From a virus: 42,174 bases of DNA. Location: the IMG/VR virus record IMGVR_UViG_3300045988_054358. One strand, given 5' to 3'. The first letter of the stretch is position 1. Each line of letters begins with the position of its first letter. Below the pieces are notes generated by a model. It was given only the letters and a program-made list of their open reading frames with translations, had not been told where the DNA came from and did not search any database. The position numbers and the translations under genes are program-made. Shown in pieces: positions 971-34,974 of the stretch.

Positions 971-1008
971 ATAAATAACACCAATATTAAATAAAATAAA
1001 TGGTACCA

Positions 1009-1085
1009 CTGGTGAGACTCGAACTCACATAATACAATTTAGAAGATTGTTTCTTTGTCCAATTAAGATACAGTGGTGTGACTTA
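1009..1085 (-). tRNA. tRNA-Arg (anticodon UCU, reads AGA), 77 nt with encoded CCA
   Basis: Folded by hand from the minus strand: acceptor ACCACUG/CAGUGGU, D-stem UCUU/AAGA with GG in the loop, anticodon stem ACAAU/AUUGU with loop CUUCUAA (U33, UCU at 34-36, A37), 5-nt variable loop, T-arm GUGAG-UUCGAGU-CUCAC, discriminator A, then CCA. Confidence 0.8.
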
Positions 1086-10675: not shown

Positions 10676-11971
10676 TTATCTTCTTATATGATATCCTGTC
10701 TTAGGTCTACTGTAGTAGATTGTACCCTTAGAGACACTACTAGTAGAGGTATCCCGAGTATCTTTAATGTTGTCTCCAATATCATTAGTGACAAACCCAA
10801 AGAAGCTCTCAAGATGCTCTTCAAGCCACTGCTCAGTAACCTCATTGATGCCTTCATCAGCATCTATACCCATGAAGTCAATAAGATAGGCTACACCCTG
10901 AGCTAGTGCATCAAGTCTATCATCATGCTTTAAGGAACCTTTGTCTCTTGTAATTCTAGTTAATTGATAGAAACAGGAGTACTTATAGTCACTTTCAGGA
11001 ACACTTGTAGCATCCTTTTGGATACACTCAGGGGACACTACCATTTTATGATTAGTAATGACAGGCTCAAGTGTATCAATAATGCGTTGTTCCTTCTGTC
11101 CCTTTGATCTCACTTCAGTACACCCACAGCCCCCATAGACAGCCTTTAAGACAGGCTCAAAGAGCTTAGTGTACATCCCGTCACCAAAGTTACCTTCAAT
11201 GACTACCTCATTTACTTTCCATTTCTTAGCAACCCTAGCTAATTTATCAAGAGTGACATCAGAATACCCACTAGTGAAGCCCCCTGTTTCCATCACATAG
11301 ATGAACCCATTGAGCCAATACAGTACTGCATATCCTGTTTCATCTGAGCCTCTACCTGATGGGTCAATAGACATCATTTTGTACCCATAAGGTTGCATCT
11401 GATCAGAAGCAGAGAAGAAATAAAAGTAGCCATCACCCTTAAGACCCAAGTTGGTAACCTGATTAGGATCACACCTCTTAGTTACGTCAGGAAGCCACGA
11501 GAGCTTCATTGGAGCCTCAGAGGTATCAAAGGTACCCACAAGCAAATCTCGAAGCTTTAAGGGGTATTTATTGGCATCATTGAGGGTAGTATCGAGCATG
11601 AACTGAAGCATGAAACCAGCTCTACCATAAGAGAGTTCACGCTTCTGTAAGTCCATATCATCGAATCTTAAGGGATCGGTAGGTTTCCCTGCAATCTTAG
11701 GATCATTATCGTACTTATCAGCAATAAACTTAGCTAAACGAGTACCATAAGTTCTCCTATGTTTTTCATCATAAGGGAATCTCGCAGGGTAAATGATACA
11801 GGTATACCCTCTTTCTTGTAGCTCATTATAAAGAGACATCTCATTCTGAGGAGTACCTAGGTAAATAATCTGAGATTTATCCCCCGGTTTAATCACAGAG
11901 TCAAACTCCTTCACGAGTTCTGAGAGTTTATCTCTAAGTACCTGAGTAAAGGAGTTCTTCGGAACTTCCAC
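10676..11971 (-). CDS. terminase large subunit, exon 2 (C-terminal 431 aa)
   Basis: Begins VEVPKNS... and aligns with T7 gp19 VEIPSNS...VIYLGTPQTEM..., continuing to the C-terminus (GYAVLY.LNG.IY.ME.GG...DGMF.K, HDDRLDALA). Confidence 0.9.
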   Translation of the reverse strand: MEVPKNSFTQVLRDKLSELVKEFDSVIKPGDKSQIIYLGTPQNEMSLYNELQERGYTCIIYPARFPYDEKHRRTYGTRLAKFIADKYDNDPKIAGKPTDPLRFDDMDLQKRELSYGRAGFMLQFMLDTTLNDANKYPLKLRDLLVGTFDTSEAPMKLSWLPDVTKRCDPNQVTNLGLKGDGYFYFFSASDQMQPYGYKMMSIDPSGRGSDETGYAVLYWLNGFIYVMETGGFTSGYSDVTLDKLARVAKKWKVNEVVIEGNFGDGMYTKLFEPVLKAVYGGCGCTEVRSKGQKEQRIIDTLEPVITNHKMVVSPECIQKDATSVPESDYKYSCFYQLTRITRDKGSLKHDDRLDALAQGVAYLIDFMGIDADEGINEVTEQWLEEHLESFFGFVTNDIGDNIKDTRDTSTSSVSKGTIYYSRPKTGYHIRR

Positions 11972-12754
11972 CTTTATGTTAGGGTAAGGTCGTTAGTCTT
12001 ACCCCATCGTCTTTTTAGTGAATCTACTGCATTTTCAGTAGCAGATACAAACTTACAGTGATCCCTAGAGTAGATCCCACAGTTGCCCTTCTTGATGTCC
12101 TTATCAAGATGCATACTAGAATCTTTCTCCCAGTCTTCATAACCTTCAACCTCATGAATTGTATTCAAAAAGGTAGTAAAGTTATGCCACCTAGGATCTA
12201 CCACACAGCCTACATAGCTAGTCTTGTAGTTACCATAGGCTCTCTTAAGCATATTAGCCCACAGGTCATAGATTCTACGGATGATGCTATTAGAGCCTCT
12301 ATCAGGTATTCTAATAGGAGACCCCATAAAACCCACACCATAGACTGTAGGTTTCATAAAGTCCTCAAACTTGCCTGCCTTAATGTTACACGTCTGAACA
12401 TCTATGACTGTACCAGTCTCGACAAACTGAATGACAGCCCTAGGATGTTTGGTTTTACCATTAGGAAGTTTTTGTTTCTTAGTCCTAGACAGAATCTTAA
12501 TAAGACCTTTAGGAGTTTCGTAAGTTTTGTTAATTTCGTACATAGTTATGTTCCTTATAATTGACGATGCTTCATATCTCTATGAAGACCAGACTATATC
12601 TTGTGCTCACTTAGAGCACCCCCATTTTTCGAGTCACTTGGCTCTACATAATAGTCGTTACACCTGCTATAAAGCTCGGCTCGGTATTGTCTTTCCTAGT
12701 TAGGACTGAGTTTCACCGAATTTAAGGGGTTTAGAGACGACATGGTTAAAGTTT
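11972..12754 (-). mobile_element. group I intron (783 nt) in the terminase large subunit gene
   Basis: Removing it restores ...[11 protein letters not shown]|VEVPKNS... (T7: ADDVEIPSNS). The 5' exon ends GAU, the intron ends ...CAUAAAG. Core elements: P AAUUCGGUGAAAC (12713-12725), Q GACAAUACCGAGC (12677-12690), R GUAACGACUAU (12651-12661), S CAAGAUAUAGUCU (12581-12593). Confidence 0.8.
11974..12543 (-). CDS. intron-encoded ORF, 189 aa, family not recognised (candidate homing endonuclease)
   Basis: Sits in the 3' half of the terminase intron. Its stop TAA is 2 nt before the 3' splice site. No clear LAGLIDADG, GIY-YIG or HNH signature. Confidence 0.5.
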   Translation of the reverse strand: MYEINKTYETPKGLIKILSRTKKQKLPNGKTKHPRAVIQFVETGTVIDVQTCNIKAGKFEDFMKPTVYGVGFMGSPIRIPDRGSNSIIRRIYDLWANMLKRAYGNYKTSYVGCVVDPRWHNFTTFLNTIHEVEGYEDWEKDSSMHLDKDIKKGNCGIYSRDHCKFVSATENAVDSLKRRWGKTNDLTLT

Positions 12755-13228
12755 ATCGTCTGCCACAATGAGATCAGCACGGGAACCCGTAAGTTGCCCT
12801 TCGATGCCCACAGATTTCAAGCTAGGGGAGTGATCGGGTCTAGCAGGGCCTACATCAAAGAGATTCTGTGTATCTCTCTGTCCTTCTCTAGCCTTAAGGT
12901 GTTCCAAGAAGGGAAGAGTATTCATGATTTTCTTAATAAAGACAGCATTAGCATCAGCTCTTTCTTTATTAGCAGAGACAATCATGATCTTAATCTGTGG
13001 GTCTCTCCATAGTCTCCACACAGAGTAAGCACAAGTAATAAAACTCTTGGCTACCCCTCGGAACCCTTCAAGGATAAATCTGTTGTTAGGGAGATTCTGA
13101 AGTGTCTTAGCGATATCCAACTGGACAGCAGTAGGTCTAGGAAGCCCAATGTACTTCCATACAAGACCTACAAACAGAGGAAAATTATCATAGAAATCTT
13201 TAAGAGATTCTTGCGAATTCAATTTCAT
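12755..13228 (-). CDS. terminase large subunit, exon 1 (N-terminal 158 aa)
   Basis: [47 protein letters not shown]...[11 protein letters not shown] matches the T7 gp19 N-terminal ATPase region. The unspliced reading frame stops 2 codons later (KL*). Confidence 0.9.
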
Positions 13229-13941: not shown

Positions 13942-16071
13942 TTACATTGATTTTCTTTCTTTAATCTCAACCATCTTGCCATCATTCATTCGAGTATGGC
14001 CCTTAATGTTACTGTAGCCCAAATAACCACAGACACGAGAGACAACAGAGATATTACTAGAGCCACACACAGGGCACTTAAAAAGTACGTTAGTGCTATG
14101 ATTATGGCAATCCTCACAGTATGCGGCATCAAAGTTAACACCCTGATAAAATCCCTGAGACATTCCCTTAAGGATAACCGCCTCAAGTGCCTTGAGATTC
14201 TTTGGGTTAGTAATCTTTACATACTGAATGTGACCACCATTACATTTGTGGAAAAATTCGTACTCTTCATCTTGTTTTTCAAAAGGCGTGACGTCTTCGG
14301 TAACTTTAAGATGAAAGGAATTAGTGAAGTATTCTCCAAATTGAGTATCACCAGTGAAATCTCTATATTGTTTTGCTTGGGTTGCACACAAAGACTCCGC
14401 AGGAGTACCATATAAAGCATAAAGATAATGATCTTCTTTTTTGTAATCCTGAATGAGTTTGTTAATGAAGTCCAAGCATTGATTAGCAAATTCTTTAGTC
14501 TCATGAAGTCCTTTACCATTAGTCCATAACACAGTAGCCTCATGAAGGGCAGTAATACCAAAAGAGGCTGTCATATAGTTTACAAGATCACCAACTTCAT
14601 CATCAGGCTTTAAGAATCCCTTATAGAATCCCCCTTGAGTGAATGCCATAGGATTAGTAGAAGCCCTAGTGTGTCTGATGATGTCATAGCGTTTCTTAAG
14701 GAACTCTCTGATTGCTTCCATTCGATCCTTAAGGACATCCCAGAAGTGATCTCTCCAAGATTCTCCAAAGTCTCTCTTACAGACTGCCATAATGACAGGA
14801 AGGTTAAGAGAAACTGCTCCAATATTGCATCTACCAATAGTGATATACTTGCCTGTATCAGGATCAGCCCAAGGAGTGAGATACGCCCGGCATCCCATCG
14901 GTGACGTAATAGCCCCGTGGTTAATAAAGGTATCTGCTACAACATTATGCTCAGGATCACCCCTCAAAGAGAGCCAATCGGGATACATACACTTAGAGGA
15001 ACACTCGATAGCCTTAGTGTAAATCTGTTTGGAATACAAATCGTTATTAACTTGTTCTTCATCAAACAGGTAGACCAGCTTAGGAAACACGACCTGTTTT
15101 CCCCCATGCCCCTTCATTCGAGTGTCAAGCATGATGGTATCAATAAGACAAAGGATATTACGATCTTCAGCACTCAGGTGTTCCCAATCGAATTGCCCAA
15201 AAGTAATCGTAGTGAAAGCAAAGTCACCACGAGAGCACGGAATGGTATTTACCTTAAGTTCCATACTCTGAAAACCCTGAGTGAGTTCTCTAGTTAGGGT
15301 TTCCCACACAAAGTTCTCACACTGAGAGTCATCACTGAAGTATTTCTTATAGAGTTCTCTAGCAGTTTTCATAGTCTTCTTGCAGTAAGGCAAAAGAACC
15401 TTATCGAGTTCTGCAAGGGTGAACCCACCGAACTGCTGAGCTGTGGCAATAAGAGTAACATCACCGATAACCTGAAGGGCACTAAGGACACTATTAGGTT
15501 CTGTATAGGTCGTATTGGACATCTCAAAGCCACCCTTCAAGACAGTCCCAATATCAAAAAGACAACAATTGACAGACCCTAAGATCATATCTCGGAGATC
15601 ATGAATATAAATGTCACCTCTCTTGGTGAGTGCCTTTTCTTCTGTGCTCAGATAGAATTGCTTATAGAGAGCCTTAGTGAGATACCCACGGATGAGACTA
15701 CCTTTGGTAGAACTAAGAGAGCTATCAAAGTTAGCATTCTCTTTGTCTCCCAAGAAGAGAACATTATCAGCTTCTTTCTTAAGGTTCTCAAATTCCTTCA
15801 CGTAGGTGTTCTTATAGTCCCTGTATTCCTGATAGGCTTTAGAAATCTCAGGGAAGTTCTCAAAGGCTAAGTAATGGATTACCAAAGAGTGAAGCTCAGA
15901 GACACTTACTGAATCCCTATCTTTGATCTCAGAGAGAACTCCGAGAATAACTCTTTCAATGGAGAAATCAGTAATAGGACACTTGCACCTTTCAGCGGCC
16001 TTATGGATAGCCACTTTGATCTTATTAGTATCCCAAGGTTCCTGAGTGTTGTCTTTCTTTGTAACGTTCAT
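13942..16071 (-). CDS. nrdD: anaerobic ribonucleoside-triphosphate reductase (class III RNR, NrdD)
   Basis: 709 aa. N-terminal ATP-cone, C-terminal Zn-ribbon CEDCHNHS...CPVCGS, and the glycyl-radical motif RVCGYLG. Confidence 0.9.
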   Translation of the reverse strand: MNVTKKDNTQEPWDTNKIKVAIHKAAERCKCPITDFSIERVILGVLSEIKDRDSVSVSELHSLVIHYLAFENFPEISKAYQEYRDYKNTYVKEFENLKKEADNVLFLGDKENANFDSSLSSTKGSLIRGYLTKALYKQFYLSTEEKALTKRGDIYIHDLRDMILGSVNCCLFDIGTVLKGGFEMSNTTYTEPNSVLSALQVIGDVTLIATAQQFGGFTLAELDKVLLPYCKKTMKTARELYKKYFSDDSQCENFVWETLTRELTQGFQSMELKVNTIPCSRGDFAFTTITFGQFDWEHLSAEDRNILCLIDTIMLDTRMKGHGGKQVVFPKLVYLFDEEQVNNDLYSKQIYTKAIECSSKCMYPDWLSLRGDPEHNVVADTFINHGAITSPMGCRAYLTPWADPDTGKYITIGRCNIGAVSLNLPVIMAVCKRDFGESWRDHFWDVLKDRMEAIREFLKKRYDIIRHTRASTNPMAFTQGGFYKGFLKPDDEVGDLVNYMTASFGITALHEATVLWTNGKGLHETKEFANQCLDFINKLIQDYKKEDHYLYALYGTPAESLCATQAKQYRDFTGDTQFGEYFTNSFHLKVTEDVTPFEKQDEEYEFFHKCNGGHIQYVKITNPKNLKALEAVILKGMSQGFYQGVNFDAAYCEDCHNHSTNVLFKCPVCGSSNISVVSRVCGYLGYSNIKGHTRMNDGKMVEIKERKSM

Positions 16072-32663: not shown

Positions 32664-33108
32664 TTATTGCTGAGTAGCTTGGTTTACAGCTACCTCATTG
32701 GCTCCCTCAATGGCTTGCTGATCCATCTGAGCCTGATTGATATCTGCCTGAGCTTCTTCAGGCGTCTTAATGATCCCATTAGCGTCAATCCCTGCCGCCG
32801 CAAAGATTCTCGTAAAGAGACCCGAGTAGTTCAATACCTGTTGCCCTTCAGGGAACTGAACAATCAGCTGAGTAACTTCTACAAGTTTCTGTAAGTCTGC
32901 CCCACGACCAAGAGCATCAAGACCAGTAATAATAGTAGGCTCAATGTTCTCACCAATGTTGGCATCCGTGGGGAGCATGCTCATAGACTGCATCTGATTA
33001 AAGATACAGTTCACCAAAGGAATCTGAAGTTCCTGAGAGAGCAAGCTATAGACACCACCAAGGGTATCTTCAAGTTCTCCAGCAACATATCGGATTTCTT
33101 CTGCCGTT
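32664..33108 (-). CDS. head-tail connector (portal) protein, exon 2
   Basis: TAEEIRYVAGELEDTLGGVYSLLSQELQIPLV... matches T7 gp8 TAEEIRYVASELEDTLGGVYSILSQELQLPLV. Confidence 0.88.
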
Positions 33109-33859
33109 CTTTTATATTATCGGGGAGTCGTTAATTCCCCACTTATAGTTACCTATAAGAATAGACTATCTCTTACCTAAAGGTTTCTACATTTCGAGCC
33201 ACTTGGCCCTACTCCTTGCGGATAGTCGTTACACTCACTTAACCTTCTTGGCACCTGTAACCTTAGCCCAAGATTTACCCTTCCAAATACCACTGATAGT
33301 AGTCCTAGAAACGTCCATTTTGTAGCGATTCTTGAACTGTGTGGGTGTCAGCCCACTATCTCGGAATTTGTAAATAAAGAGAACTTCTGATGAAGTTAAC
33401 TTATGAGTCCCGATAAGTTCCCCGTATTGCTCCATATGGAAACCGTTGTCTCTACAGTGTCTGATGTTCTGTTGAGCAGTACACCACTCTAAGTTATCAG
33501 CAGAGTTATTATAACGATTACCATCCTTGTGATTAACTTGGGGGTAATTATTAGGATTCGGGATAAATGCTTGAGCAACAAGACGATGCAAGGGAATAAA
33601 CTTAGAGCAATGGTCTGCCCCTAAGTGTATCTTCACATATCTGTTGTTCTTGGTTATAGATGTACCTTTAACCCATTTACCATTATCATTATTCAAGATA
33701 GTTCCATCTTCAAATAATGTATAGTTGTAATAGCACGGAAAAGGTAATAATTTATTAAGGTTGGTATTTCTCATAGAGTTAAACACCTCGTTAGCTCGGT
33801 ATTGTCCCCGAAGGGAGGTTCACCGAATTAGTAGAATTTATAGAGAGCCACTTTAGTTA
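33109..33859 (-). mobile_element. group I intron (751 nt) in the portal gene
   Basis: Exon 1 ends ...AGGGU. The intron starts UAACUAAAG and ends ...AUAAUAUAAAAG. Splicing gives GUA (Val) then ACG GCA GAA = V-T-A-E as in T7 (GERVTAEE). Core elements: P AAUUCGGUGAAC (about 33818-33829), Q GACAAUACCGAGC (33793-33806), R AACGACUAU (33231-33240), S AGAGAUAGUCUAU (33161-33175). A UUCG tetraloop hairpin is present. Confidence 0.85.
33235..33774 (-). CDS. HNH homing endonuclease, intron-encoded
   Basis: 179 aa from the ATG. HLHRLVAQAF...VNHKDGNRYNNSADNLEWCTAQQNIRH is the His-Asn-His core. Confidence 0.85.
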   Translation of the reverse strand: MRNTNLNKLLPFPCYYNYTLFEDGTILNNDNGKWVKGTSITKNNRYVKIHLGADHCSKFIPLHRLVAQAFIPNPNNYPQVNHKDGNRYNNSADNLEWCTAQQNIRHCRDNGFHMEQYGELIGTHKLTSSEVLFIYKFRDSGLTPTQFKNRYKMDVSRTTISGIWKGKSWAKVTGAKKVK

Positions 33860-34974
33860 ACCCTCTCGCCTTGTCTTTGTACCGCAGAATTCAAGAGGAA
33901 GCAGTAAGACAGTCTAGCTTCAATATCAGAAGCAGTAGCCTGACACACCTGCAAGTCACTTGTCTTCTGAATCTGCACAGGCATAATATCTTCAGGTTTA
34001 CCCTTTACGAAGGCCCCATTTTCACACTTGGCAAGTTCCCTAATATTAGTCTGACAAGAGGGACTAACCAAGAAGATAACCTTGGCACTCAGCATGGAGA
34101 TATCGACAATAGCCTTAGAGAGATTCTCAAGGGAAATTAAGTCACCCAAATAGTCATCAATAAAGCTTCGTCCATAGGATTCCCCATCACGCTTAAAGAA
34201 TCGAATAGGAATCCAAGGGAGCTTATTCATGGGGAATGTCTGTTCACTCCCCTCGACTACCTGCTCATTGATTTCCTGATAAGACTGCCACTGATAGGAC
34301 TCACCTTGATTGACTCGGAACACATGAGTATAGATATCAACTTTCTCATTGATCTCTGCATCATCAGCATTTTCCATGTATTCCAAAAGGTTCTCAGGAA
34401 GAGAACCCTTAGAGACAGTATCTTTAGTGACAATCTGAAGGACATTCCCAGTGCCATCTCTCTCTACTACATAGTCTCTCAAGTGGTAACACTTTACACC
34501 ACCTTCTTTAGGCGGAAGAAACAGCAGTGCATTACCTGAAATGATGAGCTGTTTGAGAGCATCAAAGAGAGTAGGTCTAAAAGAAATACTCTCAATGTAT
34601 CTCATCATAGCTTGTTCCATCATAGACAAGCCATAGTCAATCTGTTCCTTAGTATCAGGGTCTGCCTGATCCAACTTCTGCTGATTCTCAGTATCAAGAC
34701 CCAACCTAAAGAAGGGCTGAGAGGGGGGCAACAAGGCAAGCAAAAGTTTAGAAGCTAGATTGTTTACACCACGAGCACCCACAGAGTTATAAGGAGTGTC
34801 ATAAGTCGTAGAACTATTATCAGATTCCTTAGGGAATGCCTTGGGAATCGTATAGGTAGCACACTTCTCTGCTCTCTGAGTGTAATCATCACGCTCCTGA
34901 GTAAGACGATTATAGGTTGTCTTAGCACCTAATTCTTGCATCTCTGCAAGTACATTATCACTACTAGTTGCCAC
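33860..34974 (-). CDS. head-tail connector (portal) protein, exon 1
   Basis: YNRLTQERDDYTQRAEKCATYTIPKAFPKESDNSSTTYDTPYNSVGARGVNNLASKLLLAL...NSAVQRQGERV aligns with T7 gp8 residues 1 to about 375. Confidence 0.9.

Follow-up and report, generated by a model that had tools for sequence, protein, structure and literature searches.

We analysed a 42,174-nucleotide (nt) stretch of viral DNA (IMG/VR record IMGVR_UViG_3300045988_054358, hereafter the window), in which the gene for the portal protein, the counterpart of gp8 of phage T7, is interrupted by an insert at 33109..33859. This insert is very probably a mobile group I intron of the td/IA2 type, lying between bases two and three of a valine codon. 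Directly established were the exact junction, a covarying RNA structure, homology to known self-splicing introns, an intact HNH motif in the encoded endonuclease, an empty site in a related phage, and discordant identities of intron and exons; self-splicing of the portal intron, its catalysis, and the activity and the target of its endonuclease are what we infer from these sequences.

Every long open reading frame (ORF) in the window is carried by the minus strand. In the program-made ORF list, exon 1 of the portal gene starts with GTG and belongs to a 373-amino-acid ORF (33853..34974) that terminates ...QRQGERVN*, and the reading resumes in a different frame at 32664..33108. Exon 1 ends with ...CAA GGC GAG AGG GT and exon 2 begins with A ACG GCA GAA GAA ATC, the last exon 1 codon (Val, GT|A) being split by the intron. 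Upon removal of 33109..33859 a single 519-amino-acid frame is restored, which reads ...QRQGERV|TAEEIRY..., and the joined exon sequence at the predicted junction is ...GAGAGGGU|AACGGC.... The break is exactly colinear with the portal family, because the match to the Pfam profile PF12236 ends at profile position 371 in the first piece and continues from position 372 in the second. Thus, the first-pass annotation of this DNA, which had described a portal gene in two pieces 751 nt apart that rejoin colinearly with T7 gp8, was correct in coordinates, in length and in the exact junction; the boundary rules that it had invoked also hold, with U33860 as the final base of the exon and G33109 as the final base of the intron.

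Translation of the gene as it stands would not yield a complete portal protein. The frame of exon 1 runs into the insert as GTT AAC TAA, with the stop two codons in, and exon 2 is without a start codon at the junction, its earliest in-frame start being a TTG 21 codons downstream (ORF 32664..33044). Moreover, a TAA stop is found three codons 5' of the junction in the frame of exon 2. Because of the early TAA in the intron and the lack of a usable start in exon 2, full-length portal needs splicing.

The joined portal aligned with T7 gp8 (PDB 6R21) with E=4e-148 and gap-free over the junction, which falls between V369 and T370 of T7 gp8 in this alignment. The junction, and with it the insertion site, is inside a nearly invariant stretch, NSAVQRxGERVTAEEIRYVAxELEDTLGGVYS, the most conserved part of the portal. 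In tblastn searches, residues 1-519 of the joined portal matched the portals of intron-less relatives in a single piece, the nearest being two human-faecal records named 'Bacteriophage sp.', MT836074 (63% identity) and MT835557 (58%). When the portal region was compared with phage genomes by megablast, the one match was of 84 nt, to Kvp1, and no close relative came up; relatives were found by protein searches and by the 'distant' DNA mode.

The RNA structure was evaluated in an alignment of 12 distinct ORF-deleted copies, comprising nine portal introns, two DNA-polymerase introns and one td intron, with the structure derived from the window. The formal pair count covered 46 pairs in 9 helices, i.e. 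552 cells, and P6 and P9.1/P9.2 were left out of it since they were aligned inconsistently by MAFFT. Among these cells 97.1% can pair, versus 33-47% when the 3' partners were slid by 1 to 3 columns, and both-sided changes were found in 27 of the 46 pairs. The observed values were reached by none of 500 shuffles on any measure, so the pairings are far beyond chance. Covariation thus supports a predicted group I core in which P3 and P7 make a pseudoknot, together with P4, P5, P8 and P9; P7 itself is invariant in all 12 sequences and is uninformative on covariation. The pairing between exon and guide sequence in P1 covaries with the exon: the alignment pair 4/40 is G-C in the window, A-U in Pectobacterium phage PP90 and C-G in the IMG/VR copy L017. 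Eleven of the 12 aligned sequences have a U•G pair at the 5' splice site; the twelfth is td, which is misaligned owing to its P2. A U at position -1 and a terminal G were seen in every copy examined.

The pairings that the first-pass annotation had named, P4 (UUCGGU/ACCGAG) and P7 (GACUA/UAGUC), are present together with its P, Q, R and S elements, at 33795-33827, 33223-33227 and 33164-33168. P7.1 and P7.2 follow P7 and precede the 3' strand of P3, an order typical of subgroup IA and seen in td. An initial candidate for the 3' strand of P3, AGUAG (33212-33208), gave way to GUAGAA (33190-33185) once td had been compared and covariation counted. The loop motif of the terminal hairpin is common to td, polymerase and terminase introns. 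Coordinates of all features of the portal locus are collected in Table 1.

Table 1. The interrupted portal gene, its intron and the predicted elements of the intron RNA, in window coordinates
Feature	Position	Strand	Remarks
Portal (gp8-like) exon 1	33860..34974	-	codons 1-372; Pfam PF12236 profile 4-371; aligns with T7 gp8
Portal exon 2	32664..33108	-	codons 373-519 and stop; Pfam PF12236 profile 372-487
Predicted group I intron, 751 nt	33109..33859	-	starts UAACUAAAG, ends AUAUAAAAG (terminal G); boundaries fixed by empty-site allele L008
P1 5' strand AGAGGGU (last 7 nt of exon 1)	33860..33866	-	U33860 in U•G pair at 5' splice site
Internal guide sequence, P1 3' strand GCUCUCU	33842..33848	-	pair count
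P3 5' strand UUCUAC	33831..33836	-	compensatory changes in 6/6 pairs
P3 3' strand GUAGAA	33185..33190	-	pseudoknot made by P3 and P7
P4-P5 domain (P and Q elements of the first-pass annotation)	33795..33827	-	pair count
P4 UUCGGU/ACCGAG	33827-33822 / 33800-33795	-	pair count
P5 UCCC-UUCG-GGGA	33816-33805	-	pair count
Proposed P6 5' strand CUAAC	33790..33794	-	tentative; adjoins Shine-Dalgarno sequence of the ORF
Proposed P6 3' strand GUUAAG	33238..33243	-	tentative; overlaps final codons of the ORF
HNH homing endonuclease ORF (putative), 179 amino acids, in P6 loop	33235..33774	-	ATG 33774, TGA 33235
P7 5' strand GACUA, in R element	33223..33227	-	invariant in 12/12 sequences
P7 3' strand UAGUC, in S element	33164..33168	-	RF00028 partial match, high posterior probability
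P7.1 hairpin UCC-GCAA-GGA	33213..33222	-	compensatory changes in 2/3 pairs; 100% paired
P7.2 hairpin GGGCC-AAGU-GGCUC	33196..33209	-	compensatory changes in 3/5 pairs; 100% paired
P8 hairpin ACC-UUUA-GGU	33175..33184	-	compensatory changes in 3/3 pairs
P9 hairpin CUUAUAG-GUAA-CUAUAAG	33142..33159	-	compensatory changes in 5/7 pairs; also matched by Rfam
Terminal hairpin (P9.2-like) GGGGA/UCCCC, loop AUUAACGAC	33122..33140	-	minimum-free-energy (MFE) and centroid folds; outside the formal pair count

The ORF within the intron matches Pfam HNH_3 with 38.3 bits against a cut-off of 24.8, PHROG 59 with E=4e-38, and I-HmuI (PDB 1U3E), the nicking enzyme encoded by the SPO1 intron, with E=1.3e-6. 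Its catalytic motif, NHKDGN...NN..NLEW, aligns with DHKDGN...NN..NLRW of I-HmuI, and a Shine-Dalgarno sequence, GAGGUG (33784-33789), ends 9 nt ahead of the ATG. The start ATGAGA is kept in the closer portal-intron homologues (PP90, Pseudomonas phage Ep4 and the IMG/VR copies L009-L018). These matches bear out the HNH ORF of the first-pass annotation, and the peripheral loop to which it had been assigned is that of P6. In L017 and L018 the HNH ORF has 184 amino acids and its TAG stop lies inside the P7/P7.1 sequence GACUAG, so that coding sequence and catalytic core overlap.

In blastn searches, the 3' non-coding part of the insert matched 132 phage records, td and DNA-polymerase introns among them, and on the strength of these matches the predicted intron RNA is placed in the td-like family of phage introns. 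The td introns of the T4-like Salmonella phages CGG4-1 and STP4-a, whose records annotate td as a joined thymidylate synthase coding sequence (CDS) interrupted by an I-TevI homologue, share the core with 78.7% identity over 68 nt (E=7e-5). Like td (IA2), the portal intron has the order P3, P4, P5, P6 with the ORF in its loop, P7, P7.1, P7.2, P3', P8, P7' and P9, and it has the terminal hairpin with a UAACG loop. Unlike td, it resides in a portal gene, has no P2 and has shorter P8 and P9.x, and its enzyme is of the HNH type (I-HmuI-like) rather than the GIY-YIG enzyme I-TevI. With the DNA-polymerase introns of the T7-like phages phiEa100 (Erwinia) and Jarilo (Pectobacterium), the portal intron shares a host in the Autographiviridae, a compact 5' end without P2, an ORF in the P6 loop and near-identity in P, Q, R and S (85% over 74 nt, E=2e-12). 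It differs from them in the guide sequence and in being located in a late structural gene instead of a replication gene; the ORF families differ too, with that of Jarilo annotated as endonuclease VII and that of phiEa100 as hypothetical. The intron of the SPO1 DNA-polymerase gene likewise encodes an HNH enzyme of the I-HmuI sequence family, and here host gene and target site are different. A further intron-encoded HNH enzyme of a T7-like phage, also with a different host gene and target site, is I-PfoP3I of cyanophage Pf-WMP3, which is described as a nicking enzyme in an IA2 intron (PMC3428280).

The portal intron is not unique to the phage of the window. Among phage genomes, the closest relatives of its HNH enzyme (44-47% identity, tblastn) are those of Ep4 and of ∼35 records of Pectobacterium phages (PP90, Clickz, Phoria and others), and in all four records inspected for context (PP90, Ep4, Clickz and Phoria) the HNH gene lies between two portal fragments. 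In these phages the intron is at the same portal codon with homologous core helices; the introns of the Pectobacterium phages and Ep4 differ in an additional P9.1 hairpin and in their longer P8, and their portals are only ∼29% identical to that of the window. The records NC_031096 (PP90), MK095193 (Clickz) and LC776701 (Ep4) annotate two portal CDSs and an HNH gene, with no intron or joined CDS, and label the portal CDSs 'collar' or 'head-tail connector' plus 'hypothetical'.

In addition, at least 24 contigs in IMG/VR, from several samples, carry the portal intron. Among the copies compared, L009 is 99% identical to the window, L010-L018 have ∼61% portal identity, and L019 and L021-L023 ∼29%. 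The tblastn break is at residue 372|373 in all of these copies (a few residues short in L017 and L018), and sequence inspection puts their introns at the same site. A 3'-junction pattern scan of IMG/VR gave no ORF-less portal intron: 24 of the 98 stretches retrieved are portal introns, all with an ORF, and the others are chance matches. More variants of the portal intron were seen in other samples, i.e. L101 and L106 (IMG/VR 3300001525 and 3300001528), L091 and L105, and the P element of L101 and L106 does not match AATTCGGTG.

An intron-bearing and an intron-less portal allele can be compared almost directly. L018 (IMGVR_UViG_3300045988_028403), which has the intron, and MT835557.1 (L008), in which the site is empty and reads ...AGAGATAGAGTGACAGCAGAGGAG..., are 97.5-97.7% identical in the exons and differ by a precise 752-nt insertion, so the boundaries of the intron are fixed independently. 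Near the site the two alleles differ otherwise only in five synonymous substitutions, which form a cluster between -6 and +12 (GAT/GAC, AGA/AGG, GTG/GTA and twice GAG/GAA), and this cluster fits co-conversion, a requirement for pairing in P1 and protection of the target site equally. Between the window and L010 or L011, the intron cores are 92-95% and the ORFs 87% identical, versus 64-67% for the exons, where identity rises to 80% over the first 100 nt of exon 2. The gap between intron core and exons indicates a recent lateral transfer. Three portal lineages that share 29-62% protein identity all have the intron at one and the same codon. Thus, the empty-site allele and the gap between intron and exon identity both point to homing of the portal intron, which would be driven by its HNH enzyme.

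The same gene organization could also arise if a free-standing HNH gene had split the portal into two separately translated genes, whose products assemble as two polypeptides. This is how PP90, Clickz and Ep4 stand in GenBank, and a paper on phage CB5 (2018) speaks of homing endonucleases 'splitting' the head-tail connector of PP90 (PMC6115819). However, the ORF is flanked by a conserved and covarying group I core that is homologous to the td and polymerase introns, the break falls within a codon, and initiation of a second polypeptide would have to pass the TAA three codons 5' of the junction in the exon 2 frame and use the downstream TTG, by which the conserved TAEEIRYVAGELEDTLGGVYS segment would be dropped. 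Two separate portal polypeptides are therefore quite improbable. Still less conceivable, to the point of being negligible, is an insert that is an intein or a group II intron or that arose as an assembly artefact; only the interruption of the gene itself speaks for these. An intein was rejected since the frame of exon 1 is closed by a stop after two codons of the insert and since the ORF is equipped for its own translation with a ribosome-binding site and a start codon; a group II intron, since Pfam found only HNH and no reverse transcriptase in the ORF and Rfam scans were without a group II match; and an assembly artefact, since the same insertion is present in independent isolates and in the metagenome contigs from several samples.

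Several observations weigh against a typical, autonomously splicing group I intron. P2 is absent, guide sequence and P3 being only AUAAA apart; we treat this as a variant of subgroup IA2 and not as grounds for exclusion. A helix can be drawn at the place of P6 in every homologue, but it is not position-aligned between copies, and in the window it has just 4-5 base pairs (bp), which makes its assignment tentative. By-eye reading of the sequence gives a weak P10 pairing with exon 2 of ∼2 bp, and the P9.2 region is aligned too poorly for pair counting. In single-sequence folding, which models no pseudoknot, the ORF-deleted intron is no stabler than shuffles (z=-1.08), and P4-P6 is misfolded. A scan with Rfam covariance models, which the first-pass annotation had proposed as a check, gave partial agreement: at gathering thresholds the window contains only a tRNA and no group I intron, and in permissive mode the group I model RF00028 matches 33142..33310 with 26.2 bits (E=2.6e-4 when searched locally and 0.009 over the window as a whole), which is under the gathering score of 50 bits, and its confident alignment is limited to the P7'-P9 part (S element, 3' strand of P7 and P9). 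The low score results from the 540-nt ORF splitting the core, and the RF00028 model behaves alike in a survey of Bastillevirinae introns from 2025 (PMC11878797). Lastly, the evidence for splicing of the portal intron and its portal homologues is sequence-based.

Some of these observations would be explained if the group I intron does not splice unaided, either because it needs a protein of host or phage, or because it is partly decayed and its poor splicing limits the supply of portal. The absent P2, the short P6 and P8, the weak P10 and the unremarkable MFE fold are in favour of this. So is the finding, again in Bastillevirinae, that phage introns were spliced in vivo and not in vitro (PMC11878797). 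On the other side, all core helices are intact, and the compensatory changes indicate purifying selection. Members of the T4 td family, which are close relatives in the core, self-splice in vitro. We hence regard dependence on a cofactor or decay as unlikely, though less so than a split gene. Moreover, PP90, Clickz, Ep4 and other cultured phages bear the homologous intron in their essential portal gene, which argues that the intron splices in vivo.

For the self-splicing and mobile intron that we favour, the following course of events may be proposed. In the portal pre-mRNA, the exon sequence AGAGGGU would pair with the guide sequence GCUCUCU to form P1, in which a U•G pair marks the splice site. 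The core of P3 and P7, propped by P4-P6, P7.1, P7.2, P8 and P9, would bind free guanosine, which attacks after U33860. The freed exon 1 would then attack after G33109, yielding ligated ...GAG AGG GUA ACG GCA... and restoring the 519-amino-acid portal, and on unspliced RNA translation would stop two codons into the intron. The HNH enzyme, expressed from its own Shine-Dalgarno sequence and ATG, would nick or cut the portal gene of relatives that infect the same cell and lack the intron, and repair off the intron-bearing genome would copy the intron into the cut allele (homing).

A second, related group I intron of 783 nt was noticed in the window, at 11972..12754 on the minus strand, where it interrupts the gene for the large terminase subunit (gp19-like). 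The terminase exons are 12755..13228 and 10676..11971 (minus strand), with the junction ...LIVADD|VEVPKN..., and the joined terminase of 589 amino acids aligns over the junction with the large terminase subunit PDB 8DGC (E=1e-189). This intron gives a full-length match to RF00028 with 49.1 bits (E=1.3e-9), just below the gathering score of 50. It has GACGAU/GUCGUC as P1 and a terminal G, and its core has P, Q, R and S in common with the portal intron, without P7.1. Its ORF (11974..12543, minus strand, 189 amino acids) lies in the P9 region, 3' of the core, and not in P6; this ORF matches PHROG 2081 'HNH endonuclease' with E=1e-39, has no Pfam match at 1e-3, and is of a different HNH family from the enzyme of the portal intron. 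Elsewhere on the minus strand, the window encodes an anaerobic ribonucleotide reductase NrdD (ATP-cone and glycyl-radical domain; 13942..16071) and one tRNA (1004..1077). NrdD, the tRNA and the human-faecal origin of the nearest relatives fit an anaerobic gut host.

In the full-text literature searched, introns of T7-like phages are described only in DNA polymerase genes, e.g. those of K1F gp5.3, phiL7 and Pf-WMP3. An explicit report of a portal-gene intron was not found in the full-text literature, which is no proof of absence as subscription journals were not covered, and the part of a 2025 compilation of phage introns that was available holds no portal or connector entry. The statement in the first-pass annotation that introns in T7-like phages had been reported only in DNA polymerase genes agrees with the literature that could be searched. 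Hence, the host gene appears to be new, while the td-like IA2 ribozyme, the I-HmuI-like HNH enzyme and the logic of homing are already known.

It is conceivable, though we consider it rather doubtful, that the portal and terminase introns act as a weapon between phages, with their HNH enzymes cutting portal and terminase alleles of relatives, which would thereby be excluded or converted. On the same speculative reading, to which we give no greater credence, flanking sequence would be co-converted alongside the late-gene alleles of the competitor. The model for this is marker exclusion, which is reportedly brought about by enzymes of the I-HmuI type in SPO1 and SP82. If true, it would explain the spread of the intron over phages of the gut and of plant pathogens whose portals are ∼30-60% identical. 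The efficiency of splicing might also control how much portal and terminase is supplied, and hence the timing of packaging.

The value of the finding is modest but real, and lies in annotation and in a system for studying homing; no concept is changed by it. Recognition of the intron restores one essential portal protein in many T7-like genomes (PP90, Clickz, Phoria, Ep4 and others), and corrected annotation fixes gene counts, core-gene phylogenies and proteome matching. In T7-like phages, group I introns would be extended from DNA polymerase to two central packaging genes, those for portal and large terminase. The natural pair with and without intron at 97.5% exon identity, together with the signal of lateral transfer between diverged phages, would make this intron a good system for studies of homing and of competition among gut phages.

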